Source: a virus (taxonomy: Duplodnaviria > Caudoviricetes). From it: a DNA stretch of 60,804 nt. A program made the translations under genes and the position numbers. The stretch spans positions 1-60,804 of IMG/VR virus record IMGVR_UViG_3300048592_000232, one strand, 5' to 3'. Positions 858 through 50,290 of this stretch are shown here, one piece after another (position 1 is the first letter of the stretch; the number at the start of each line of letters is the position of its first letter). The notes under the pieces are model-generated. The model saw only the letters and a program-made list of their open reading frames with translations, was not told where the DNA came from and searched no databases.

Positions 858-2117
858 CTACCCCCTCACTTTCGTTGTGTACTCGTTCAAAATCTTCAAC
901 GTCTTCGGCGACAGTTCCATCTCGCCCGCCGCGTCGAAGTAGTCACACAGAATCCCACGCACCATCTCCGTATCGCCGCCTGTCAGGTACTTGAAGCGCA
1001 GGTAGGCGATCACAAACTGCAAGTGGCCGAGCTGCAACAGGTCGTTGGCGTCCTTGCCTTCCAGCGACTGGGTCGCAGCGACCAGCCCGGACGCACCCGC
1101 CGCAATGTCTGCGCGCACCCTGGCCGCCCGATCCGGCTCATCCATCCAGACAAGCACCTTGCCGTAACGGTGCAAGAACGCCAACATCCCCGGCGTGAAC
1201 TTGGTGTCCTGGCTGCCGATGCTCATCACGTCCACGTTGGCGGTGTGCGCTTCCTGCCAGATGGACATCGCATTCAGTTCGCCCTCGCAGACAATCACCG
1301 TGCGCAGCCGTTCGGTGGGACGCTCCCCCGGCAGCAGCTTCACCAGGTGAAAGCCCGGCAAGCCAGCGCCGCCCCACAGCAGCCCGACAAACTCGCCGCG
1401 CCCGCTCTGCTTGTAACTCTTGCCGAGGGGGTTAGTCTGCTTCTCGATGAAGCGGTAGCGAACGCCCTTCAGGACATTGCCCGACCACCACGGCATGACA
1501 ATCGCCGGCGCTTTCTGCTTGCCCTCCGTCCCCGGCACCGGCACGGCTGGATCAAAGCCCAGCCCGAAGCGCTCCCACGTGGCGCGCTTGAAGCCGCGGC
1601 CTTCCAGGTACGCCACACCCGGCGCACCGTCCAACCCCGCTAAAATCGCCTGAGAGCGTTTCAGTTTGTCGGTGTAATATTCCGGGTCGAATTTTTTGGT
1701 TTCGCTCAATTTCGTGGCCTCTACGCCCGATGGCGGGGCTATTGCGCTAACGGCGCGGGTGATATTTTTCGGCGCCGTTGATTTTCCGGCAAACGTGCGC
1801 CCTGTCAGCGTTCTTACCGCGTCCGAGACGGACACCTTGTCGTAGTAGGTGATGAAATCTATCGGGTCCTTCCAGCCCTTCTCTTCCAGCGGGTAGCAAA
1901 TCCGGCAGAACCAGCCGTTCTTTTCCACCGAAACGTGTAGCCGATCCTCGCCTCCGCAGTACAAACAAGGACCGCTAAACTCCGAGCGCCCCGCTTCCGG
2001 CGTCAACTGCGCCCCATGCGCAATCGCCAGATCGAGGATCGGCTTCCGCTTGGCCTCTGCCAGCAAATCCCCGTTACTGTCCCCGTGACTGAATTTCCGT
2101 CCCACCGTTGCGTACAT
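858..2117 (-). CDS. DNA primase (CHC2-type zinc finger + TOPRIM)
   Basis: GPCLYCGGEDR...WFCRIC zinc finger; AYLEGRG; VCEGELNA and DEPD/GKDAND TOPRIM motifs. Confidence 0.85.
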   Translation of the reverse strand: MYATVGRKFSHGDSNGDLLAEAKRKPILDLAIAHGAQLTPEAGRSEFSGPCLYCGGEDRLHVSVEKNGWFCRICYPLEEKGWKDPIDFITYYDKVSVSDAVRTLTGRTFAGKSTAPKNITRAVSAIAPPSGVEATKLSETKKFDPEYYTDKLKRSQAILAGLDGAPGVAYLEGRGFKRATWERFGLGFDPAVPVPGTEGKQKAPAIVMPWWSGNVLKGVRYRFIEKQTNPLGKSYKQSGRGEFVGLLWGGAGLPGFHLVKLLPGERPTERLRTVIVCEGELNAMSIWQEAHTANVDVMSIGSQDTKFTPGMLAFLHRYGKVLVWMDEPDRAARVRADIAAGASGLVAATQSLEGKDANDLLQLGHLQFVIAYLRFKYLTGGDTEMVRGILCDYFDAAGEMELSPKTLKILNEYTTKVRG

Positions 2118-2138
2118 GACTCTCTCCCTTCCAGAAAA

Positions 2139-3036: not shown

Positions 3037-4494
3037 TTAGCGCGTCACGATCTGGGTGACGTTCCCGCCTTCGACCCAGATCGTGGCATGGCGCTTGAGG
3101 AATGCGTTGACCTTGACGATGTCGTAGTCGTCGCCGGTCAGCATGTCAACCGTGACGGCGACGAACTCTTGCAGCCGCTCAACCCGGTTGGCAACGTCGG
3201 CGTGTGTTGCCTGGTTGCGCCGGGCGATCAGTTGCAACTCTGCGTTGCGTTGCTGATTGCGGATGCGCGTCATGTGCGCTTGAAATTCTTCCAGGTCGAG
3301 AATGCCGTCAGTGTAGGCGCGTGTGAGCCGGTCTCGCTGCTGGGTCAAATCCTGCAAGGCAGTTTCAAGCTCTGCGATCTCTTTTTCGATTGGCGCCGTG
3401 TCTTGACGCAGCGACTCAATCATTGAGTCGTAGGTTTCCCGCCTTCTGATCTCGCCGATGTAGAGCAGAAGTGCAAAGGTAACGGCGCTTTCCCCGATCA
3501 GCGTCTTCGTGCACCTCTCCGCTTGGTTGCGCCGGTTGCTGCACACGTAGATGCGATCCGTGCGTCCGTAGCCTGCATTGTGAATGTGTTTGCGACCGTT
3601 CGACGCCAGCCGGCCTCCGCACTGCTGGCAGCGCAGGATGCCGCTGTACAACGCTGGCGACGAAACCGAACGCCTAGCCTCACTGCGTCGCGCTCGTTCG
3701 CTCTCGACTTCCTGCGCGGTGTCTTCGCTGACGATGGCTTCCCAGACGCCGCGGTTGCGCATGGGATCGTGCTTCTTGCTTTTCAGCCGGTACTGCGCAT
3801 AGCCCGCATATGTCCAAATCGTGTTGATGACATGTTCTGCCGTGCTGATCCCGATGCCTAGTTCCGTGGCGATCTTGCGCAGAGATAGCCCCTCGTACAG
3901 GTACAACTCGACGATGCGCTTGACCGTCTGCGCCTCTTGCGCATGGATCACATAATCGCCGTCGCCCTTTTTGCGGTAGCCAAACGGTGGGCGACCCGGC
4001 ATTTTGCCTGCCTTGATTCTGGCTTCCATACCAAAGGCGTGGCGCTTGCGCAGGTTGATCAGCTCCATCTGCAAGAAAAGACCTTCAATGCCGTAGGTGA
4101 TTTGCCCGCCAATCGACATGGCTTGTTCGTTGGCGTCAAGGGACTGCGGCGGCGAAGAACGCAAGTAGATGGCGCACCCGTTGGCGTGGCAGATGTCGAT
4201 TACCTGGCTGGCGAGCGCCGTCCTCCTGCCGAGCCGAGACAGGTCACGGGCGATCAGGATGTCAGCCGCGCCAGCCTTGACCATCTCACGCAGTTGGCGG
4301 TAGGCGAGAATGTTCGTTTCGGCGTCTACGAACTCCGTGTACTCTCTTGATTGTCCCGGCACATCCAGCACGGCAACAATCTCCGCGCCGATTTTGCGCG
4401 CGGCGGCTTCGTTCTCGCGGCGCTGTTCGTCGGGTGACTCCTTCTCCGCTTGTGGTCTGCTGGACACTGCAATCCAGGAAATTGCACGGCGCAT
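3037..4494 (-). CDS. Large serine recombinase (integrase)
   Basis: N-terminal resolvase domain (AVSSRPQ; DLSRLGR), GRPPFGY recombinase domain, SGILRCQQCG...YVC zinc ribbon, C-terminal coiled coil. Confidence 0.92.
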   Translation of the reverse strand: MRRAISWIAVSSRPQAEKESPDEQRRENEAAARKIGAEIVAVLDVPGQSREYTEFVDAETNILAYRQLREMVKAGAADILIARDLSRLGRRTALASQVIDICHANGCAIYLRSSPPQSLDANEQAMSIGGQITYGIEGLFLQMELINLRKRHAFGMEARIKAGKMPGRPPFGYRKKGDGDYVIHAQEAQTVKRIVELYLYEGLSLRKIATELGIGISTAEHVINTIWTYAGYAQYRLKSKKHDPMRNRGVWEAIVSEDTAQEVESERARRSEARRSVSSPALYSGILRCQQCGGRLASNGRKHIHNAGYGRTDRIYVCSNRRNQAERCTKTLIGESAVTFALLLYIGEIRRRETYDSMIESLRQDTAPIEKEIAELETALQDLTQQRDRLTRAYTDGILDLEEFQAHMTRIRNQQRNAELQLIARRNQATHADVANRVERLQEFVAVTVDMLTGDDYDIVKVNAFLKRHATIWVEGGNVTQIVTR

Positions 4495-4563: not shown

Positions 4564-5010
4564 TCAGGCCAGCGTGAATGTTCTGAGAAACGAGATAAGC
4601 GTTTTGCGTCTGTCGGATGGCGTTGATTGCACCAGTGCGCACAGTTCCTCGATTTCCGCCGCCGACTCTGGGCTATCCAAGTGTACGATCAGGACATCTT
4701 CGTCCCGCCTTGCGGGTAGCATCGGGTCTTCAGTCAACAGAACGAGAAAATCAGTCGTGGTTTTCAGCACGATGGCGAGTGCCTTGAGAAGCTGCCCGCT
4801 TGGATAGGTGTCCCCTCGTTCCAGTTCTGAGATGTAGGATTGCCCAACCTTTACGCCTCCTTCCAGGTCAAGCATTGAGGTCAGTTGTTCTTGCGTCATG
4901 CCCATATTGCGACGCAAGAAAAGAATCCGTTTACCGGGGGTGTCCAGTAACGTGTTTTCGTGTCGGTCTTTGCCCTTTCGCACCTTGCCTCCTTTGCGCT
5001 GATACTCCAT
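4564..5010 (-). CDS. XRE/HTH immunity repressor (CI-like)
   Basis: GKRILFLRRNMGMTQEQL...QSYISELERG...LKALAIVLKTTTDFL; upstream of integrase and divergent from early genes. Confidence 0.88.
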   Translation of the reverse strand: MEYQRKGGKVRKGKDRHENTLLDTPGKRILFLRRNMGMTQEQLTSMLDLEGGVKVGQSYISELERGDTYPSGQLLKALAIVLKTTTDFLVLLTEDPMLPARRDEDVLIVHLDSPESAAEIEELCALVQSTPSDRRKTLISFLRTFTLA

Positions 5011-10286: not shown

Positions 10287-10345
10287 TTGACATTTATCAT
10301 CATGTGTGATAAATTTAGCTTGTACAGATATTCAGAGCGAATCGA
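10287..10345 (+). promoter_or_regulatory. Promoter with palindromic operator ATTTATCA-N7-TGATAAAT and leader motif GAGCGAA
   Basis: TTGACA-17-TAAATT with the inverted repeat in the spacer. Confidence 0.65.
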
Positions 10346-10375
10346 CAGATTCTTTTCAATTGTAAAGGAGACATC

Positions 10376-10831
10376 ATGGAGAAGACAAACGGCTACACGG
10401 CACAGGTTTCACCCTGGAGCACATTGCAGGGTGAATTGATCGATGCGTTTGATGGTCTTGATCAAGCCAACTATCGTCTCGCCGATGCGTTGGGTGAACA
10501 GGCGCGTGCGCTGGTGGCGCTGGACGCGGCCAAGCAGGTTGCGGAGGATGTTGAGTCTGAGTTCACAGGCGAGATCATGTTCTCCCTGGAGTTTCAGGAC
10601 AACAAATCCATCCAGAAGAACGCAGAGTCTCGCAAGGCGTACATGGACTTGCGGCTCGTGCGGGCACGCAAGCCCGGCGGCGTGATGTACTACGCTGCCG
10701 AGGCATTGACGAAGGCAAAAGAGGATCGGCTATTGGCCGACAACGAAGTCGAGCTTGCCAAGCGGCAGGTGCTGGCAATCCAGGCGAAGATTGACGCACT
10801 GTCGAGCCTTGTTCGTGGATTGAGCGCATGA
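10376..10831 (+). CDS. Hypothetical coiled-coil protein
   Basis: Strong RBS AAAGGAG; KNAESRKAY motif. Confidence 0.7.
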   Translation: MEKTNGYTAQVSPWSTLQGELIDAFDGLDQANYRLADALGEQARALVALDAAKQVAEDVESEFTGEIMFSLEFQDNKSIQKNAESRKAYMDLRLVRARKPGGVMYYAAEALTKAKEDRLLADNEVELAKRQVLAIQAKIDALSSLVRGLSA

Positions 10832-16071: not shown

Positions 16072-16119
16072 TATTGACATTTGATTAAATGCCGTGTACA
16101 ATAGGAGACGTAAGAGCGA
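16072..16119 (+). promoter_or_regulatory. Strong promoter, twin of 49592-49639
   Basis: TTGACA-17-TACAAT followed by GTAAGAGCGA; 42/48 nt identical to its twin. Confidence 0.85.
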
Positions 16120-16149
16120 GTTAGAATATCAGCAGGGGAGATAATCAGC

Positions 16150-16332
16150 ATGGTAGAAATCTTCACAGGCCGCACACGGGGCAAGCAGGCCGCACGCTTC
16201 ATCGAAAAGATTGAAGCGGCTGGCGGCGAGGTCTACGAGACGTGTGACGATCAGGAAATCGAGACCGGGGTGCGCTTCCTCGAAGTGCACTACGAAATGC
16301 CAGCAGAGACCGAAGAAGAAGATGAGGAATAG
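16150..16332 (+). CDS. Small acidic protein
   Basis: First gene after the strong promoter; ends ETEEEDEE. Confidence 0.65.
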   Translation: MVEIFTGRTRGKQAARFIEKIEAAGGEVYETCDDQEIETGVRFLEVHYEMPAETEEEDEE

Positions 16333-16924: not shown

Positions 16925-17809
16925 ATGGAGAACACAAAGATCGAGTGGGCGCATCACACGTTTAACCCGTGGATTGGATGCGCAAAGGTGTCGGATGGTT
17001 GCCGGTTCTGCTACGCCGAAGCATTCGCCAGGCGCTACAACAAGGCCGAATGGGGACCAGCCGCGCAGCGCATACGCACCAGCGACGCCTACTGGCGCAA
17101 ACCGTTGTCGTGGAATCGGAAAGCCAAGCAAGAAGGCCGGCGCTATCGGGTGTTCTGCGCATCGCTGGCCGATGTCTTTGAGGATAAAGCCGAACTTGAT
17201 ACCTGGCGTCATGACCTCTTTCTTATAATTGAGCAGACACAGTCGCTTGATTGGCTTTTACTTACCAAACGACCAGAAAACGTGGCGACCATCATCGAGC
17301 GCCATGTTCCACAGGGAATTGCAAACTACTTCGATCTCAATCCGCACGTCTGGATCGGTGCGTCAATCGAAAACCAGGAGCAGGCAAACAAGCGTATCCC
17401 CCATCTGTTGGAAATACCTGCACGAGTACGCTTTCTAAGCATGGAACCACTGCTCGACCCAGTAGACCTAACCCCATGGGTAAACAGTTGCCCCAGTTGC
17501 GGCGCGCATCGCAAGGATAGCCTCCCAAATATCAGTTGTGGCTACTGCGAAGAACAACCACGCGTCCGTGGCCTCCAGTGGGTCATCGTCGGCGGCGAGA
17601 GTGGCGCCAAAGCCCGCCCAATGCGTGAAAGTTGGGTACGCTCCATTCTCAATCAATGCCAAGTATCGGCAACGCCATTCTTCTTCAAGCAATGGGGAGA
17701 ATGGGCGCCAACAGATCACTCTCCGACAGTAACCGACGTAATGAATCGCGTCGGAAAAACCGCAGCCGGACGCCAACTCAACGGGCGCACATGGGACGAA
17801 ACGCCATGA
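16925..17809 (+). CDS. DUF5131 / phage Gp37-Gp68 family protein
   Basis: TKIEW..TFNPWIGCAKVSDGCRFCYA; VFCASLADVF; LLLTKRPE; FLSMEPLL; WVIVGGESG; FFFKQWG. Confidence 0.9.
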   Translation: MENTKIEWAHHTFNPWIGCAKVSDGCRFCYAEAFARRYNKAEWGPAAQRIRTSDAYWRKPLSWNRKAKQEGRRYRVFCASLADVFEDKAELDTWRHDLFLIIEQTQSLDWLLLTKRPENVATIIERHVPQGIANYFDLNPHVWIGASIENQEQANKRIPHLLEIPARVRFLSMEPLLDPVDLTPWVNSCPSCGAHRKDSLPNISCGYCEEQPRVRGLQWVIVGGESGAKARPMRESWVRSILNQCQVSATPFFFKQWGEWAPTDHSPTVTDVMNRVGKTAAGRQLNGRTWDETP

Positions 17810-18183
17810 CCACCATCACCGACTACTCGCAGAAAGAGCTGCCGCAGAACATCCGCGACATGCTCGACGGCAAGCACGATGGCCGAGCGCTGGACGGCAA
17901 GAGCCTGGCGCAGGATGTGCGCGACCTGGGCGCAGCCAAAGAGCGCGTTAAGGCGCTGCTGTACATCGAAGGGCACGTAACCGGCGCTGACCTGTACACC
18001 CTGGCCGCCGATGAAATCGAGAGCCTGCGTGCGCAGGTGGAAGACCACATCGCCAATGCCCTGGTTAGGGCAAATCGGCAGGCGATCATCGTCGAGGCGC
18101 TGCGGCATATCCGGGAATTCAGCTTGTATCAACATGACCGAGAGGTTGCCACGCAGGTGCTGAGAGAGATTGGGGAGCAGTGA
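17806..18183 (+). CDS. Hypothetical protein
   Basis: ATGA coupling; AADEIESLR motif common in phage early genes. Confidence 0.6.
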   Translation: MTTITDYSQKELPQNIRDMLDGKHDGRALDGKSLAQDVRDLGAAKERVKALLYIEGHVTGADLYTLAADEIESLRAQVEDHIANALVRANRQAIIVEALRHIREFSLYQHDREVATQVLREIGEQ

Positions 18184-18328
18184 ACCATGACTAACGGCAT
18201 GGGATTTAAGACACTCATCTGGACGCACGTCGAACGCCCGTGCCGCTGCACGCCAGAGCACCGGCCATTCTGCCACCGCTGCGGAGGCACGGGCATCTAC
18301 AAAAGCGCACGACTACGGAGGATTGACC

Positions 18329-18571
18329 ATGTACATCAGCAGGAGACCGACGCCACGCACGGCGCACCTGACGCCGCAACCGATCACCAAGCAGCAGGTG
18401 CTTGACGCCGCTGCGCACTGGCGCAGGATCGCCAACGAGCAGGACGCCATCGCCGACAGCGAGACAGCGCAGGGTTTGCCGCGCGGCGACGTGTCCAGTT
18501 ACCGGGCACGTGCCACACTATGGCATCAAGTGGCGGATGACTTGAAAGCGCAAGCGGAGGTGATGGCATGA
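18329..18571 (+). CDS. Hypothetical protein
   Basis: RBS GGAGG; coupled to the next gene. Confidence 0.55.
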   Translation: MYISRRPTPRTAHLTPQPITKQQVLDAAAHWRRIANEQDAIADSETAQGLPRGDVSSYRARATLWHQVADDLKAQAEVMA

Positions 18572-18984
18572 ACACGACCATAACTGTCAACATTGCCGAC
18601 CTCGAAAAGGTCAAGGTCAATCTTGCCCACTATCGAAAACAAATCGAGCAAGCGGCAGAGCGTGAAAACACTTTGATGCGGCTCCTTGAGCGCGCAAACG
18701 CCGAACGGCAGCAACTCAAGGCGGAGATTGCTGCACTGAAGCGCCAACGGATTGCCGACCGCGACGCCATTGCGGAGTATCTGCGCAGGGCAATGTCGGA
18801 TTTCCTCCAGAACACGATCAAGTTTCAGTTGCGCGAGACGCCGGATAGCTACGTTGTCGAAAAGGAGATCGTCAACGCGTGGTGGAAAGCCGCCAATACG
18901 AACTACGAAGACCTGGACGAAGACGATAAGTCCCTGTACATCTGCGACGCTGACGCAATCGTATCGATAGTGAGAGTGAACTGA
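18568..18984 (+). CDS. Hypothetical coiled-coil protein
   Basis: RBS GGAGG; ATGA coupling. Confidence 0.6.
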   Translation: MNTTITVNIADLEKVKVNLAHYRKQIEQAAERENTLMRLLERANAERQQLKAEIAALKRQRIADRDAIAEYLRRAMSDFLQNTIKFQLRETPDSYVVEKEIVNAWWKAANTNYEDLDEDDKSLYICDADAIVSIVRVN

Positions 18985-18988
18985 CACC

Positions 18989-19174
18989 ATGAATACACCA
19001 ACCTATGTCCCGTGGCTTGTCCTGGCAGGCTATGCAATCGCCACAACATCGCTGGTGCATCTCACCATCAAGATAGGCGCTGATGCTGCGCTGGCATGGC
19101 TGGCAGTTGCTGCAATCAGCGTTGCCGTTCGACTTGGCGAGCGGCATTTGAGAAGGACAGAAAGGATACAGTAG
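18989..19174 (+). CDS. Small two-TM membrane protein
   Basis: Two hydrophobic segments. Confidence 0.5.
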   Translation: MNTPTYVPWLVLAGYAIATTSLVHLTIKIGADAALAWLAVAAISVAVRLGERHLRRTERIQ

Positions 19175-19428
19175 TGAGCAACGACACACGTGAAGCGGTT
19201 GCCAGCGTGCAACACGACATCTGGGCGCACTGGATGAAATATCTGTTTTCAGTTTGTTACGTGAATCATGACGGAACGGTGACGATCCCAGCGGACAAAG
19301 CAATTCGCTGGAAACGGCAAATGAATACTGAATACGCCAAGTTAAGCGATGAGGAACAGGAGAGCGACCGCAATCAAGCCGATAAAGTTATCGGAGTGCT
19401 GCAACAAATTGAGCAGGTGAAACCATGA
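19174..19428 (+). CDS. Conserved-type small phage protein
   Basis: HDIWAHW..Y...RWKRQMNTEYAKLSDEEQESDR motif. Confidence 0.6.
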   Translation: MSNDTREAVASVQHDIWAHWMKYLFSVCYVNHDGTVTIPADKAIRWKRQMNTEYAKLSDEEQESDRNQADKVIGVLQQIEQVKP

Positions 19429-19924
19429 ACACCACGATGCGAGCGTGGGTAGTTCGTTGCGAAGGCGAGAGTTGCGTTGTCGTTGCCCGAACTCCAAATC
19501 GGGCAAAACAAATCACACAGCGTTCTGCAAAGGACGCCGGACTCGATGCGCAGTGGACGACTATCACCGTGCGCCGGGCAAAGCAGTTTGACTGTCTCGC
19601 TTTACACCGGGAGATCGGCCCCATCACGCCAAAAGTAGCGGAAACGATGGCGGCGCTATGACTGCCCGCTACGCCATCCAGCTTGCCGACTTCATGGTGT
19701 TGCGCCAGCGTGAACCGGCGCTCGGCATCGTGCTGGCCGCCAACGTCGAGCGTCAGCCGATCACCATCGGCAAGGAGCGCTTTGACGACGAAGCCGTAAC
19801 GTTTGCGTGCCCGGCAGAACAGGCTGAAGCGCTGGTGCAAATCGTGCGCACCAAATACCGCCGCGACGAAGTGCGCATCTGGCGCAACGACACGGGAGCC
19901 AAGAGCGCATGGAGGCGGGTGTAG
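19425..19924 (+). CDS. Two coupled small hypothetical genes (19425-19661, 19658-19924)
   Basis: ATGA overlaps. Confidence 0.5.
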
Positions 19925-20053
19925 TGCTGCAACGAATCGGGCGAATCCGCCACAAAAGATGGCGTGCTATGCCACATTTTGTGGCATCTGCAGGTGTAGT
20001 GCTGCAACGAACTGCGACGCGTGCGTGGAACAGATGAAGGAGGAAAGGAAACA

Positions 20054-21388
20054 ATGGCTAAAAAATCATATTTGACTGTCACTGATCAGTTTTGCGGTGC
20101 GGGCGGTTCCAGTATCGGAGCCACCGCAACCGGTGTTGAATTGCGGGTGGCGCTCAATCACTGGCAACTTGCCATCGAGACACACAACAGCAATTTTCCA
20201 AACGCGCTACATGATTGCACCGACATCTCGGCCTGCGATCCGCGCCGCTACCCATCGACGGACATCCTGATTACCAGCCCGGAATGTACCAATCATAGCT
20301 TGGCGAAGGGAAAGCGCAGGCACAGCCAACCCGATCTATTCGGCGCGAACGTGCCCGACCCGGCAGAGGAACGCAGTCGAGCGACCATGTGGGACGTGCC
20401 CCGCTTTGCGGAGTATCATCGCTACAATGCCATCATCGTCGAGAACGTAGTCGATGCGAAACACTGGGTCACATGGGACGCCTGGCTGCACGCCATGCAG
20501 TTGCTTGGCTACGAGCACCAGATCGTCTTTTTTAACAGCATGTTCGCATGGCCGACGCCGCAGTCGAGAGATCGCATGTACGTGGTCTTCTGGCGCAAGG
20601 GCAATGCACGACCTGACCTCGACTTCCACCCGGCTGCGCACTGCGAGAGGTGCGGCAAGACTGTCGAGAGCGTCCAGTCCTGGAAGCGCCACGGGCAACG
20701 GTGGGGCCGCTACGGTGCGCAATACGTCTACCGCTGTCCCACCTGCGCCGCCGAGGTCAAGCCGTTCTACAACCCCGCTGCTAGCGCCATCGACTGGACG
20801 CTGCCCGCCCCGCGCATCGGAGACCGCAATAAGCCGCTTAAAGGGAAGACGGTTGATAGAATCCAAAAGGGGTTGGACAAATACGGAAGGCGAGAATTGA
20901 TCGTCGATACATCATTTGGCGACGGAGATCGCGCGTCGTTGGTGTCCGAACCACTGCGAACACAGACGACGCGTCAGACGATGGCGCTTATCATGCCCTA
21001 TTACAGCACCGGCGTCGCCAGGCCAACCAGCGAGCCAATTCCGACCGTAACAACGACCGACCGGCACGCGCTTGTAGTGGCGCCTCCGTTCATCCTCGGC
21101 TACTATACGCGCGTATCTGGCGTTCGGGCTGCAATCAGCGGAGTCAATGAGCCTATGCCGACGCAGAGCACGCAGCCGCGTCATTACTTGGTACAGCCGG
21201 GCGGCGTGCCATCTGTCGAGGATTGCGGCTTTAGAATGCTGCGTCCGCACGAGATTCACAACGCGATGGCGTTCCCCTCCGATTATAAAGTCCTCGGCAA
21301 CAATCGCGAACAAGTGCGGCAACTGGGTAACGCAGTCACGCCGCCAGTGATGAAACTGCTCGTTGAGCGTGTGGTGAGGGCACTATGA
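20054..21388 (+). CDS. DNA cytosine-5 methyltransferase (orphan)
   Basis: DQFCGAGG motif I, SPEC motif IV, VENV motif VI, PQSRDR motif VIII, QLGNAV motif X. Confidence 0.93.
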   Translation: MAKKSYLTVTDQFCGAGGSSIGATATGVELRVALNHWQLAIETHNSNFPNALHDCTDISACDPRRYPSTDILITSPECTNHSLAKGKRRHSQPDLFGANVPDPAEERSRATMWDVPRFAEYHRYNAIIVENVVDAKHWVTWDAWLHAMQLLGYEHQIVFFNSMFAWPTPQSRDRMYVVFWRKGNARPDLDFHPAAHCERCGKTVESVQSWKRHGQRWGRYGAQYVYRCPTCAAEVKPFYNPAASAIDWTLPAPRIGDRNKPLKGKTVDRIQKGLDKYGRRELIVDTSFGDGDRASLVSEPLRTQTTRQTMALIMPYYSTGVARPTSEPIPTVTTTDRHALVVAPPFILGYYTRVSGVRAAISGVNEPMPTQSTQPRHYLVQPGGVPSVEDCGFRMLRPHEIHNAMAFPSDYKVLGNNREQVRQLGNAVTPPVMKLLVERVVRAL

Positions 21389-22539
21389 GAAACCAAACGT
21401 CATTCTTTGAGGACATGCGCCTGACACTCGAAGACGCCATCGGCCTAAGCGTCGCCAGCCTGAACGAATACGGGCAACGGTATCGACACTGGGCGATTGC
21501 CTACAGCGGCGGCAAGGACAGCACGGCAACAGTTGCGTTTGTGGCGTGGGCGATTCGCACCGGGCTGGTGCCTGCTCCGGCGTCGCTGACCGTGCTCTAT
21601 GCAGACACGCGCATGGAGCTACCGCCGTTGCAGCAAAGCGCCATGCAGTTGCTGTCAGCATTGTCGGCGCAAGGAATCAGCACGCAGGTCGTGTTGCCGA
21701 AGATGGCGGACAGATTTTTCGTTTACATGCTTGGTCGTGGCGTTCCACCACCAAGCAACACGTTCAGATGGTGCACACCGCAACTCAAGATCGAGCCGAT
21801 GCACGCAGCATTAGCCGACTTACGCCAGCGGCACGGCGAAAAGCTGTTGATGTTGACTGGCGTCAGAATGGGTGAATCGGCGGCGCGTGACCAGCGAATT
21901 GCATTGTCATGCTCAAAAGATTCCGGAGAATGCGGGCAAGGATGGTTTCAGGTCGCCACGCCTGACAGCATGGCAGACACGCTTGCACCGCTTCTGCACT
22001 GGCGATTGTGTCACGTGTACGACTGGCTCTATTTCGATGATCGGCACGGCTATGACGCTTCTGGAATCGCAGCAATCTATGGCGAGGATGATGTGCGAAC
22101 TGGGTGCGTTGGATGCAATCTTGCCAGCCGTGACAACGCGCTAGAACGCCTGCTGCGCCGGCCTGAGTGGTCGCACCTGGCGCCGCTGTTGGAATTGCGC
22201 CCGCTTTACGCTGAACTGAAGCTCGCAAAAAACCGCAAACGCAAAGCCGAACCGGAACTGCGCAAGGACGGCACATTTGCAACGAACGTACAGCGTCTCG
22301 GCCCGCTGACAATGGATGCGCGTCGCTATGGACTTGACCGAGTGTTGGACATTCAGCGGCGCGCCGGCGTTGACCTGATCAATGATGAAGAGATCGCTCG
22401 CATCTTGGAATTGATCGCCGCCGACACCTGGCCGAACAAATGGAGTGGTGACGACATCGCTGGCGACAAGATGCTTGACGCAGTGAGCGTCACAACATTG
22501 GGCGATCTTGTGACGCAACCAATCCTGGTGCACCTATGA
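21385..22539 (+). CDS. Phosphoadenosine phosphosulfate reductase family (DndC-like PP-loop) protein
   Basis: AYSGGKDS, RWCTPQLKIEP, GVRMGESAARD, RTGCVGC. Confidence 0.88.
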   Translation: MRNQTSFFEDMRLTLEDAIGLSVASLNEYGQRYRHWAIAYSGGKDSTATVAFVAWAIRTGLVPAPASLTVLYADTRMELPPLQQSAMQLLSALSAQGISTQVVLPKMADRFFVYMLGRGVPPPSNTFRWCTPQLKIEPMHAALADLRQRHGEKLLMLTGVRMGESAARDQRIALSCSKDSGECGQGWFQVATPDSMADTLAPLLHWRLCHVYDWLYFDDRHGYDASGIAAIYGEDDVRTGCVGCNLASRDNALERLLRRPEWSHLAPLLELRPLYAELKLAKNRKRKAEPELRKDGTFATNVQRLGPLTMDARRYGLDRVLDIQRRAGVDLINDEEIARILELIAADTWPNKWSGDDIAGDKMLDAVSVTTLGDLVTQPILVHL

Positions 22540-22766
22540 ACTACTACATCTTCGACCGTGTACCGGGCTACCATCCAAAATACACGTTTGCGGTGTTGGC
22601 CGTCAACGCCAACGATGCACGGCAGTGGATGCGCAACGTCAACAAAGGCGGTGTGCTGATTCGCACGATCACAAGCGGCGAGGTAAAGGCCGACATGGGC
22701 GCATTGACCACAGCAGCAGAACACGTCATCAGGGAGAAGCGAGAACTTGAGGAAGGGGAGCTATGA
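22536..22766 (+). CDS. Small hypothetical protein
   Basis: ATGA coupling on both sides. Confidence 0.55.
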   Translation: MNYYIFDRVPGYHPKYTFAVLAVNANDARQWMRNVNKGGVLIRTITSGEVKADMGALTTAAEHVIREKRELEEGEL

Positions 22767-23422
22767 CACACGAACTCCGTCTCGACCTGGGCGACCGCAA
22801 CGATCTCACCTGGGCGCAGCGCATCGTCACCAGCTACCACTACCTGCGCCGCCCCGTTGACCCGCGCGCACGCCCGATGGTCTACATCGTGCGTCACGAT
22901 GCTGACACGTACCAGCGTCCCCTCGGTCTGATCATGCTCGGCATTCCGCACGCCACACGCTGCACGGGCTGGTGGGGCTATCCCGGCCTGCCGACACAGT
23001 GGCAGGTCGTGGACTTGTGCCGCATTTGGATTGACCCGGATTTGCAACCTGGTGGACGATGGTGCGACCCGTACACCGTCCCCGGCTTCTACGACCGCTG
23101 CGGCAAGTTTCGCCCGACTACACCAACATGGGCGATCAACGAGGTGCTACAGCGCGTGCAGGCTGACCGGGTGCGCCTGTGGCCTCCGGTCTATTTGGAC
23201 CAGCCCTATCACATCCGGCTCGCCATCTCGTATCATGACCCGCACTACCACCGCGGCACCATCTACCGGCACAGCCACGCCACGCCGATGTACACCGACG
23301 CAACCGGCAACCCGATCCCCGGCTCGTCTGGTAAGTTCGGCTGGTGCTGGCCTCTGCCCGCGCCGGCCTGGGAATGGTGCAACCTGGCGGATTTGCGGGC
23401 AAGACAGATCAGGATGATATGA
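22763..23422 (+). CDS. Mom-like GNAT-fold DNA modification protein
   Basis: IVTSYHYL, DLCRIW, ISYHDPHYHRGTIYR match the Mom-family pattern (HY; E/DLxR; SYxD..H.G.IY). Confidence 0.65.
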   Translation: MTHELRLDLGDRNDLTWAQRIVTSYHYLRRPVDPRARPMVYIVRHDADTYQRPLGLIMLGIPHATRCTGWWGYPGLPTQWQVVDLCRIWIDPDLQPGGRWCDPYTVPGFYDRCGKFRPTTPTWAINEVLQRVQADRVRLWPPVYLDQPYHIRLAISYHDPHYHRGTIYRHSHATPMYTDATGNPIPGSSGKFGWCWPLPAPAWEWCNLADLRARQIRMI

Positions 23423-23514
23423 TCTCTTGCAGCCAGTCGCTCCGACTGCGGAATTTCCGCAGTCACTTTCACACAAATGCATCTCACCAAACCGCAACAC
23501 ACAAGGAGCACGCC

Positions 23515-23976
23515 ATGAAACTCTACGCACTTCTGATCGCCGTCGCCGCTGCCATCCTCGCCACCACTGCCGCCGCGCCAGCAGCACCCCGCTGGCCGTC
23601 CGCATCGCTCACCTACTGGCAGGAGGCCGAGCCGCTGCTCGACACCCTCGACATGGAATGCCGCGCCGGGCTGAAAGCCATAGGCGACCCGGACGCCATC
23701 GAGACCCCCCTCGACGCCGTGACAGCCGTCCAGGAAAGCGCCGCCGAGCTTGACCCGCCGCCCGCCTTGCTGCCGCTGCATACCCGCTTGGCCTACGCCG
23801 CCGAAACGTGCCGGAACACCCTCCAGTATGCCAGCGGTGCAACAAACAACGACGACATGCGCATCGTAATTCCCATGATTACCCAGTTCGGCATTGAGAC
23901 GCTGCGCAGCCTCAATGAGGCACGCGTCGAAGCTGCCCGCTACGCTGCCACGGTCGGCGGATTCCCAGGACGCTAA
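23515..23976 (+). CDS. Secreted protein with N-terminal signal peptide
   Basis: RBS AAGGAG; MKLYALLIAVAAAILATTAAA. Confidence 0.7.
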   Translation: MKLYALLIAVAAAILATTAAAPAAPRWPSASLTYWQEAEPLLDTLDMECRAGLKAIGDPDAIETPLDAVTAVQESAAELDPPPALLPLHTRLAYAAETCRNTLQYASGATNNDDMRIVIPMITQFGIETLRSLNEARVEAARYAATVGGFPGR

Positions 23977-23997
23977 TGAGTTTGCCTGACAGGAGAT

Positions 23998-24129
23998 AGA
24001 AAGGGGAAGCGCCCGGCCAATGGAGACCGGGCGCCTTGTCTTGCGGGCAGTGGGCGCTGAAAGGAAGGGCGTAAGAGCGAATTACAACCCATGCAAAGGA
24101 GAGTGCGCCGCGAGCCTGCCCCTCGTTGC
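23998..24129 (-). ncRNA. Candidate small regulatory RNA
   Basis: TTGACA(24164-24159)-17-TATGCT(24141-24136) promoter; nested stems with apical loop UUCGCUC and CU-rich internal loops; terminator-like hairpin 24009-24034; no RBS-led ORF. Confidence 0.55.
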
Positions 24130-24255
24130 ATTGACAGCATAGCACGTCGCCCGCCCACTGTCAATGCACGGCGGATAAGTACCCTGGCGCACCCCTCCGC
24201 AAACTTCACATAAAACCGACTTTTTGCGCAGAGCTTACCAAGAGTTCACGGCTAT

Positions 24256-24480
24256 TTTTAGCACAGTTTGTGCACAATTGGTCTACAATTGGTCGTAGTA
24301 TTAAGAGCTTTACGAAAATCGCCTTTTTACTCTGGGCGGATTGTCATAAAATTGAGTTAGCGAGCAATTAGTGGACAATTAGTCGTAGTCTAGAGCATAG
24401 TTTTAGCACAGTTTGTGAAAAGTATACCGACTTTTTCGTAGACATAACGCAAAAATCTTCACGCAAACCATACGCAAACC
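24256..24480. repeat. 11-bp-period array containing the second copy (24311-24383) of the 73-bp block
   Basis: 64/73 identical to 2521-2593; ttttagcacagtttgtg at 24256 and 24401; acgcaaa repeats. Confidence 0.8.
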
Positions 24481-24564
24481 TTGCAGGATGTATGTGCTAA
24501 TCGGCGCAACTTGATAGTTACGTCAATTTCTGTAAGTGCCTCCCAGGAAATTTGTAGGTTTCAT

Positions 24565-24686
24565 GGCGACAGTCCGCCAGGGGTCACTTGTCCCAGGATA
24601 TATCCCCCTACGTGTATATATATCTAAAAGATATATACACTAGGGGGGATATCCTTTGGGACGGTGACACCCTGAGCGCTGTCGCC
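24565..24686. repeat. Long imperfect inverted repeat (hairpin B), core inverted relative to hairpin A
   Basis: ggcgacag...gtcac.tgtcccaggatatatccccctacgtgtatatatatct AAA agatatatacactaggggggatatcctttgggacggtgac...ctgtcgcc. Confidence 0.85.
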
Positions 24687-24916
24687 CGGCCTACCAGAAA
24701 ACAAAATCGGCCGCCGACACGCAAAACGCCTTAGACGGGCTGCAAGGCGTCGGAAGTTGCGCTCATGGTAGATTGTACCTTTTTCGTATTTCCGTTGAAC
24801 ATGACCCCCGCCACGACCGAAAACGGCCTATCCGCTGCATATTCGCTGGAAGGATATTTTTATATCAGCCGAAACCGCTAAAAATCATGCAGGCTGATAT
24901 GGTTGCCTGACAGGTA

Positions 24917-24962
24917 TTGACAATTGCTTTGTTTGTGCTACAATCGGGGCTGTAGGAGCGAA
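24917..24962 (+). promoter_or_regulatory. Promoter with leader motif GTAGGAGCGAA
   Basis: TTGACA-16-TACAAT with extended TG. Confidence 0.65.
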
Positions 24963-25070
24963 CAGTCAGGAACGTGCATGAAAGGAGCAAGCCAGTGATT
25001 CACCTATCAGATGCAGCCGCCGCACTGCTTGCGGATTGCGAAACCGCCGCGTGGCTGCAAGGAGCAGGCA

Positions 25071-25238
25071 ATGACGTACCCGGAGAAATTTCAAGTCGTC
25101 GAAGCGTGGGTCAACACCGCGTGGGTGTCCGTCTTCTGGGATGGCCAGGGGTGGCGATTCTTCCACACTCGGCAGACTATCGAAACGGCCATCACGCACT
25201 GGCGACCGCTGATCGGATTGAAGGTGACGCATGACTAG
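25071..25238 (+). CDS. Small hypothetical protein
   Basis: RBS AAGGAG. Confidence 0.5.
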   Translation: MTYPEKFQVVEAWVNTAWVSVFWDGQGWRFFHTRQTIETAITHWRPLIGLKVTHD

Positions 25239-35676: not shown

Positions 35677-35708
35677 CTAGCAAGCCTTTCAGGTAAGAGG
35701 AATCGTTT

Positions 35709-49591: not shown

Positions 49592-49639
49592 TATTGACAT
49601 TTGATTCGATGTCGTGTAAAGTAGGAGATGTAAGAGCGA
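49592..49639 (+). promoter_or_regulatory. Strong promoter, twin of 16072-16119
   Basis: TTGACA-17-TAAAGT followed by GTAAGAGCGAA. Confidence 0.8.
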
Positions 49640-49667
49640 AACAATTCAGGCAGTAAAGGAGAGAGTC

Positions 49668-49871
49668 ATGCCTACAATTACACTGGAAGGGAAGGTTTAT
49701 CGGGTTTTGGGAAACCAGACCCCGGAGACCGTCGAAGCGGAGGAGTTGCCGACCCAGGCGGCGCACTACCGCAAGATGGGCATTACGGACGTGTACAACC
49801 TGGCCGACAACACCGGCTGGTTTCACGCAACCGTCACTGTCAACGGCGTCGAAGTCGTGCGCATCGGGTAG
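49668..49871 (+). CDS. Small hypothetical protein (moron gene 1)
   Basis: RBS AAAGGAG. Confidence 0.65.
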   Translation: MPTITLEGKVYRVLGNQTPETVEAEELPTQAAHYRKMGITDVYNLADNTGWFHATVTVNGVEVVRIG

Positions 49872-50248: not shown

Positions 50249-50290
50249 AGCCCGGCAGTCATTGAAGGTTGACTGCCGGGCTTTTTGTTT
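50249..50290 (+). terminator. Intrinsic terminator between convergent genes
   Basis: agcccggcagtc-loop-gactgccgggct then TTTTGTTT. Confidence 0.8.

Follow-up and report, generated by a model that had tools for sequence, protein, structure and literature searches.

A candidate antisense RNA gene with complementarity to several dispersed 5' leaders in the genome of a predicted temperate phage

The c4 RNA is cut from the very transcript that it controls and, to our knowledge, the RNA immunity factors known from phages (P1 c4, P4 CI) each control one operon and are each cut from the regulated transcript. As described for P1/P7, c4 acts in trans by base pairing, its loop-exposed segments meeting leader sites that include the ribosome-binding site and so blocking expression (PMC12197685), and P4 CI is described as an RNA immunity factor that pairs with two sites in the untranslated leader RNA of its own operon, is processed from that same leader transcript and causes premature transcription termination (PMC4825925). 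Other small phage RNAs treated alongside c4 are P22 sar and lambda OOP, each of which pairs at or close to the translation start of a phage gene and thereby represses it, and STnc6030 of BTP1, a prophage small RNA that is expressed in the lysogen, acts on a phage mRNA and limits superinfection (PMC12197685). Here we analyse a segment (24164–24005, minus strand) of the Caudoviricetes record IMGVR_UViG_3300048592_000232; the window analysed, 60,804 base pairs (bp), is the complete virus record with direct terminal repeats. An initial annotation had proposed that the segment encodes one RNA silencing several phage transcripts; its observation was confirmed, and its interpretation was partly supported. 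The best reading of the segment is a predicted gene for a non-coding RNA of ~125 nucleotides (nt) with its own strong sigma-70-type promoter. We lean, with slightly better than even confidence, to the view that this RNA would act in trans as an antisense RNA and block translation of a regulon of duplicated promoter-leader cassettes.

In its predicted logic the candidate would be a phage trans-acting antisense regulator standing outside the c4 and P4 CI families. As with both of these RNAs, pairing is predicted at two leader sites, and as in c4 two exposed RNA segments fit them: positions 24081–24071 fit a motif at the 5' end of the transcripts, and the stretch CUCUCCUUU fits the Shine-Dalgarno (SD) sequence. 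Unlike c4 and P4 CI, the candidate has its own promoter (24164–24136) and is not predicted to be processed from a target transcript. Unlike c4, which controls one antirepressor operon, it has several dispersed predicted targets 0.8–25 kilobases (kb) away (at 2.7, 10.3, 16.1, 24.95 and 49.6 kb, on the strand opposite to the RNA), with complementarity over nearly the whole leader. Its predicted targets, unlike that of P4 CI, lie at other loci, and a translation block is the simplest prediction. Whereas sar and OOP overlap their targets and are perfectly complementary to them, the candidate overlaps no predicted target and would pair imperfectly; its transcript (24129–24005) merely abuts the 3' end of gene 23512–23976. 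In contrast to STnc6030, it is predicted to target a set of duplicated 5' leaders. Rfam includes a C4 model; the candidate, unlike c4, matches no Rfam family in sequence or structure, the whole window giving no match at gathering score and the interval 23900–25050, searched with E up to 10, giving hairpin-like microRNA and weak unrelated matches only, with no C4 model. This agrees with the proposal that the logic resembles that of P1 C4 and P4 CI without recognisable kinship in sequence. The own promoter and non-coding transcript of a trans-encoded small RNA were both found by sequence prediction, and the imperfect complementarity to the translation initiation regions of distant mRNAs goes beyond chance.

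Promoter, transcript and fold of the candidate RNA gene

The minus-strand promoter reported initially, pointing into a stretch free of open reading frames (ORFs), was recovered by the promoter scan. It consists of a −35 hexamer TTGACA (24164–24159), a GC-rich 17-nt spacer and an extended −10 element TGcTATGCT (−10 hexamer 24141–24136), matching the consensus at 10/12 positions plus the TG. Promoters with at least 10/12 matches number eight in the genome (121.6 kb over both strands), and since the other seven all face a gene or operon, the promoter scan predicts well in this genome. The transcript would start at the G at 24129, 7 nt past the −10 hexamer, and end near 24005, as placed by a hairpin; no SD-led ORF lies inside it.

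The minimum-energy fold reproduced the three stems named at the outset (GGGCAG/CUGCCC, GGCGC/GCGCC and GGG.UGUAA/UUACGCCC) together with the loop UUCGCUC. The two closing stems are nested and frame the antisense segment (24121–24045, minus strand), the outer one pairing 24121–24116 with 24050–24045 and the inner one 24109–24105 with 24057–24053. The apical hairpin GGGUUGUAA-UUCGCUC-UUACGCCC occupies 24090–24067, and its loop plus 3' arm (24081–24071) is the perfect complement of the leader motif GTAAGAGCGAA. The anti-SD stretch CUCUCCUUU (24103–24095), with an unpaired fraction of 0.7–0.9, is predicted to pair with AAAGGAGAG or GGGGAG of the leaders, and a second CU-rich stretch, CCCUUCCUUUC (24069–24059), is ~0.9 unpaired. 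Across the ensemble the loop UUCGCUC (~0.9), CUCUCCUUU and UUCCUUUC were unpaired at 70–99%, bearing out the claim of exposed anti-SD bulges. A GC-rich end hairpin of 12 bp (24036–24007), followed by UUCCCCUUUCU, also stands 3' of the stop codon of the plus-strand gene 23512–23976 and may terminate transcription on both strands.

Complementarity to the leaders of dispersed operons

Complementarity extends well beyond the motif. Read on its plus strand, the RNA gene lines up with five plus-strand leaders from the transcript start to the SD sequence and amounts to a promoter-less copy of an entire 5' leader; compared with the P49594 leader it has 11 + 9 identical bases at a spacing of 13 vs 14 nt. 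The P16074 leader (16074–16152) has TTGACA-17-TACAAT, 7 nt, the motif as GTAAGAGCGAG (16110–16120), SD AGGGGAG (16134–16140) and ATG at 16150, and the P49594 leader (49594–49670) has TTGACA-17-TAAAGT, 7 nt, GTAAGAGCGAA (49630–49640), SD AAAGGAGAG (49655–49663) and ATG at 49668. Two moderate candidates are the P2644 leader (2644–2726; TTGACG-17-TATGCT, 7 nt, GTAAGAGCCGA at 2680–2690, SD AGGGGAG at 2711–2717, ATG at 2724) and the P24917 leader (24917–24997; TTGACA-16-TACAAT, 7 nt, GTAGGAGCGAA at 24952–24962, SD AAAGGAG at 24981–24987, GTG at 24995). The fifth and weak one is the P10287 leader (10287–10378; TTGACA-17-TAAATT, CAGAGCGAA at 10333–10341, SD AAAGGAG at 10364–10370, ATG at 10376).

We asked how far the motif itself departs from chance. 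It has no mismatch at 49630, one at 16110 and at 24952, and two at 2680 and 10331/10333. At up to one mismatch GTAAGAGCGAA occurs four times in the window (16110, 24071, 24952 and 49630, all on the plus strand) vs 0.77 expected, and none of 100 shuffles reached four. At up to two mismatches the count is at chance level (15 vs 11.5 expected; 18/100 shuffles reached 15), and other 11–12-mers of the RNA also match unrelated places in the genome, so the motif count alone is modest evidence. Exact k-mer matching was likewise rejected as proof, an 11-mer match alone having proved not special. The placement of the motif, unlike its count, is not chance-like: it starts exactly 7 nt past the −10 hexamer, at the predicted transcript start, in P16074, P49594, P24917 and P2644. 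The position just past the −10 box that had been described for all five promoters thus holds for four, but at P10287 the motif lies ~17 nt past the predicted −10. The order motif then AAAGGAG, described for the 49630 and 10333 sites, was found with AAAGGAG at 49655 and 10364.

Pairing energies were then compared with the whole genome. A scan of an 82-nt RNA against 50-nt windows was uninformative, being swamped by long-looped GC-rich duplexes, and the 50-nt centre and a cofold calculation were used instead. When the central 50 nt of the RNA were scanned against ~20,000 windows of 45 nt on both strands (mean −19.3, standard deviation 5.1), ranks 1 and 2 were 16099–16143 in the P16074 leader (−47.9) and 49621–49665 in the P49594 leader (−45.5), rank 5 was 24943–24987 at P24917 (−42.1) and rank 18 was 2677–2721 at P2644 (−37.9); these four are sense-strand leaders right behind strong promoters. 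In the cofold scan, which subtracts the energy of each RNA folded alone from that of the cofold and thereby charges the opening of both (10,086 windows; mean −7.5, standard deviation 3.8), the P16074 and P49594 leaders again supplied the three best windows (−33.1, −30.8 and −26.5). The duplexes drawn for the leaders took in 7 nt upstream of the likely start, and the test was repeated from the predicted +1. The energy difference (ddG) was then −23.9 for P16074 (7 of the 10,086 windows as good), −22.8 for P49594 (9 windows), −18.4 for P2644 (107), −16.4 for P24917 (232) and −10.1 for P10287 (2234). Control leaders gave −7.3 (P5073; 4727 windows as good), −5.4 (P49567; 6898), −6.6 (P35747; 5535) and −14.1 (P2167; 592).

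With 300 dinucleotide-preserving shuffles of the RNA centre and the duplex energy taken for each leader, no shuffle was as good for P16074, P49594, P2644 or P10287, and 6/300 were for P24917, while three of the four control leaders behaved like shuffles (245, 110 and 90 of 300 as good) and the P2167 control was borderline (15/300). The claim that one RNA is complementary to both motif and ribosome-binding site of several leaders is upheld for four of them; P10287 falls to background once opening is charged. The targets are unequal: P16074 and P49594 are strong, P2644 and P24917 moderate, and P10287 doubtful.

Two of the control leaders carry sequences of their own interest. The P2167 leader (2108–2132, minus strand; primase-like gene) has GGAGAGAGTCATG in common with the P49594 leader, and its GGAAGGG could pair with the second CU-rich stretch of the RNA, for which it is the sole suggested partner, with borderline scores. 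GTAAGAGGAAT, the motif minus one base, lies at 35693–35703 on the plus strand, inverted within the leader of the minus-strand operon promoter P35747, so that this leader carries RNA-like rather than target-like sequence. It does not pair with the RNA (ddG −6.6, 90/300 shuffles equal), and GTAAGAGGAAT is probably there by chance.

The mechanism that we propose for translation block is conditional at every step. The central 50 nt of the RNA would be the antisense of a promoter-less copy of a leader common to several dispersed plus-strand operons, one that opens with GUAAGAGCGAA and closes with the ribosome-binding site AAAGGAG or GGGGAG. First contact would be made by the apical loop UUCGCUC, 7 nt long, at the unstructured 5' end of the mRNA, forming at P16074 a predicted 15-bp helix with one G-U pair; pairing would then run along the leader to CUCUCCUUU, masking the SD sequence. 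Ribosome loading would be blocked, and the long imperfect duplex would probably also invite cleavage of the mRNA or early termination. Main targets would be P16074 (an 8-kb operon) and P49594 (a three-ORF cassette), with P2644 and P24917 secondary and P10287 doubtful. The consensus structure of the five leaders contains 0 pairs, which fits accessible targets and speaks against a cis-acting structured leader element; a riboswitch or put-like leader was ruled out on this ground. A type I toxin-antitoxin pair was also ruled out: the only plus-strand ORF (24091–24213) is rich in Arg rather than hydrophobic, and no gap separates its SD from the start codon.

As to origin, the plus-strand leader copy is immediately preceded by TTGTCT-16-TGAAAG-7 (24036–24070, plus strand), which keeps the register of the real cassettes and agrees with the promoter hexamers at 4/6 and 3/6 positions. 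It probably represents a cassette promoter that has decayed, our own rough estimate of ~0.02 for a chance occurrence being only a hint. This arrangement suggests a duplicated promoter-leader cassette in which the sense promoter died and an antisense promoter arose. If weakly active, the decayed promoter would make a perfect complement of the RNA, a sponge.

Alternative explanations and comparative evidence

Several points weigh against translation control by the RNA. In the energy test with opening cost P10287 fails and is the same as background. P16074 and P49594 are paralogues over positions −37 to +12, so the two top matches count as one evolutionary event, not two. The end hairpin has a poor U-tract and was not listed by the terminator scan; a GC-rich hairpin is present where a terminator-like one had been described, but the 3' end of the RNA is uncertain. 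The fold is no better than that of shuffled RNA (z −1.35, 21/200 shuffles equal), and scans of viral, metagenome and genome contigs gave no homologue of the RNA gene beyond near-identical metagenome contigs. Finally, shared ancestry within a duplicated cassette might by itself explain the complementarity. The homology seen when the leaders are aligned with the plus-strand copy, the degenerate TTGTCT-16-TGAAAG-7 in the right register, the low fold score, the weak U-tract and the lack of a conserved homologue in the contig scans also fit an evolutionary remnant, in which plus-strand 24058–24103 is a decayed cassette copy, the minus-strand promoter is fortuitous or serves, for example, transcriptional interference with read-through from the upstream operon, and no pairing takes place in vivo. 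We consider this unlikely, though it is a serious contender. A near-consensus promoter with an extended −10 stands ~55 nt from the motif and is aimed into it, one of only eight of its class, the other seven lying before genes; the 11-nt and 9-nt pairing blocks are intact beside a degraded sense promoter and both sit where the fold leaves the RNA unpaired, and the region is almost unchanged in contigs of four other sequencing runs.

The fixed 7-nt register between −10 and motif in four promoters (P16074, P49594, P24917 and P2644), kept in the orthologue of P49594 in the closest relative found (TATACT-7-GTAAGCGAT), also fits a role at the level of DNA or of the transcription start. On that account GTAAGAGCGAA would be an operator of a phage protein or an initial-transcribed signal for promoter escape or pausing, and the copy in the RNA gene a further site; repeated DNA operators are plainly used by this phage, and GTAAGAGGAAT at 35693, one base shorter, is inverted in the P35747 leader. 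The motif, however, is neither palindromic nor repeated at any site, an operator does not predict complementarity reaching the SD sequence, and at 24071 there is no functional sense promoter for the copy to regulate. The initial annotation had named an orientation-independent operator as a finding that would speak against its RNA; all four copies at up to one mismatch share one orientation, but the inverted variant at 35693 does exist, and it requires a deletion, about one such match being expected by chance by estimate rather than computation. We regard a DNA-level element as quite improbable. Less probable still, in our view, is a real RNA with another job, be it an element acting on the convergent P16074 operon by cis-antisense pairing or termination, a regulator of replication at the iteron/palindrome block, or an anti-SD RNA for host mRNAs. 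The RNA gene is convergent with the last gene of the P16074 operon, with the end hairpin common to both; it adjoins 0.7 kb of non-coding DNA in which iteron-like repeats and a palindrome of 120 nt are found; and its two CU-rich single-stranded stretches could pair with many SD sequences. Yet the paralogous repeat/palindrome block at 2.3–2.6 kb has no such RNA gene, and it is particular leaders far away, rather than adjacent sequence, that complement the RNA best within the phage genome.

Relatives were sought for the RNA gene and its surroundings. Contigs from four other metagenome runs (4 studies) cover the RNA gene: one spans 23845–24644 with 10 differences, a second 23917–24656 (740 nt) with 3 substitutions and 4 gap letters, a third 23444–25200 with 63 differences and a fourth 24089–24357 with 6 differences. 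Neighbouring contigs of the second run, among the matches listed, differ by ~5–10%. Read from contig-level difference totals, this shows the predicted RNA gene to be retained in close variants. Among the 20 rows listed for public sequencing runs containing the region, from 12 studies, there is no RNA run. The closest relative found (G003) is a 27.6-kb fragment of ~70% identity, whose P49594 orthologue keeps the operator, TATACT, 7 nt and then GTAAGCGAT; by sequence the start-of-transcript motif is partly conserved there, with a one-base deletion. No antisense copy is present in that 27.6-kb fragment, nor were any found for the leaders of strong promoters in four related records and the loci L002–L014. 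A 219-residue neighbour protein has 13 relatives in viral contigs, synteny stopping at 23420–23423 in all of them and the RNA region and motif occurring in none; the 154- and 198-residue neighbour proteins have no relatives in viral contigs, and none were found for the 325-residue protein beside P49567. Pattern scans gave no match for the 17-mer of the RNA hairpin or for the RNA promoter spacer, 18 matches for a leader 16-mer, all in unrelated contexts, 21 metagenome and 8 genome matches for a two-block pattern and 41 for the iteron pattern, none of the matches to the last two patterns being similar to the window by blastn.

The distant relative L010 (a viral contig) has its own repeated strong promoters at 2023, 3115, 6999 and 7773 (plus strand) and 1961 (minus strand), with the spacer TTGACAAAATTAT. 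The leaders at 2023, 7773 and 1961 start TTCGCT or GTCGCT, two of them with small 5' hairpins. As judged from these promoters and leaders, L010 is another case of a duplicated promoter-leader cassette, unrelated in sequence.

Genome setting and possible regulon

By its gene content the virus is a temperate phage, with a serine integrase (3040–4494, minus strand; PHROG E 4.5e-60), a helix-turn-helix (HTH) repressor-like protein (4567–5010, minus strand; Pfam HTH_3 E 3.3e-09) and a divergent early promoter, P5073 (5073, plus strand), followed by replication genes, as identified by promoter scan and profile matches. No near relative of the phage was found among the annotated phage records searched. 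The inverted repeat TATCA-N7-TGATA occurs in the window at 13 sites with up to one mismatch vs 0.62 expected (2143, 2176, 5040, 5484, 5535, 6082, 10244, 10295, 16127, 24883, 35714, 35756 and 49569). It lies at or beside P2167, P5073, P10287, P16074, P24917, P35747 and P49567/P49594, that is, nearly all strong promoters, and is probably the operator of the HTH repressor (4567–5010) or of a Cro-like protein; the copy at 16127–16143 overlaps the SD sequence of the P16074 leader. With a protein operator already present at these promoters, the RNA would add a second, post-transcriptional level of control and not be the sole silencer. At that level it would make silencing in the lysogen tighter, act upon an incoming superinfecting genome or time the shut-off of early genes.

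The P16074 operon, ~8 kb long, ends at the hairpin shared with the RNA gene and encodes a 60-residue acidic protein, a DUF5131 protein (E 1.6e-85), a C5 cytosine methylase (E 1.1e-26), a PAPS-reductase-like protein (domain E 3.3e-09) and others, the profile matches lying within 16925–23419 on the plus strand. It looks like a DNA-modification or anti-restriction module, to judge from these profiles, and would be the chief cargo that the RNA controls. Behind P49594 stand three small ORFs that have a terminator of their own (50249–50282), and the P2644 gene (2724–3032) encodes a 102-residue protein with a weak match to a transcriptional regulator family (PHROG E 0.0034). Profile matches leave the genes behind the five predicted leaders mostly without assigned function, and the description of the targets as early or moron transcripts was not established. 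For the first ORF behind P24917 there are two overlapping candidates within 24995–25238 (plus strand), GTG 24995 (79 residues) and ATG 25071 (55 residues); the former is served by the SD sequence that the RNA would cover, and the latter has its own AAGGAG.

Two paralogous non-coding blocks were found, 24265–24383 corresponding to 2475–2593 and 24565–24686 to 2306–2359. Their 119-nt unit is 80% identical and holds two pairs of ACYAATTG-N3-ACYAATTG, 90 bp apart (5 sites vs 0.09 expected), and each block has an AT-centred palindrome, the arms of the one at 24.6 kb spanning ~120 nt. The primase-like gene and P2644 adjoin one block, the RNA gene and P24917 the other; the blocks look like an origin or a regulator-binding region. 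TGCCTGNCAGG occurs in 7 copies vs 0.14 expected (23983–23993 and 24904–24914, also 2438, 34589, 42237, 48654 and 58329). Two identical 12-nt copies, TTGCCTGACAGG, flank the 921-bp non-coding block with the RNA gene, repeats and palindrome and may mark where a module was inserted, or may be a site for a protein.

A broader reading, which we hold only tentatively and think possible rather than probable, is an RNA counterpart of a repressor-operator network. One master antisense RNA, made from a cassette copy that lost its sense promoter and gained an antisense one, would recognise the transcript start and ribosome-binding site of every cassette, and any gene acquiring the cassette would be enrolled automatically in a post-transcriptional regulon, serving immunity or timing alongside the protein repressor. 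The RNA prediction is readily testable, with a seed of 7–15 nt, clear pairs of compensatory mutations and four other strong leaders as built-in negative controls. If true, it would mean that a free-standing antisense RNA co-regulates several dispersed operons via a duplicated common leader, would illustrate a route to a post-transcriptional regulon through cassette duplication and inverted promoter polarity, and would add an RNA layer to a lysogeny circuit with a conventional repressor and operators.

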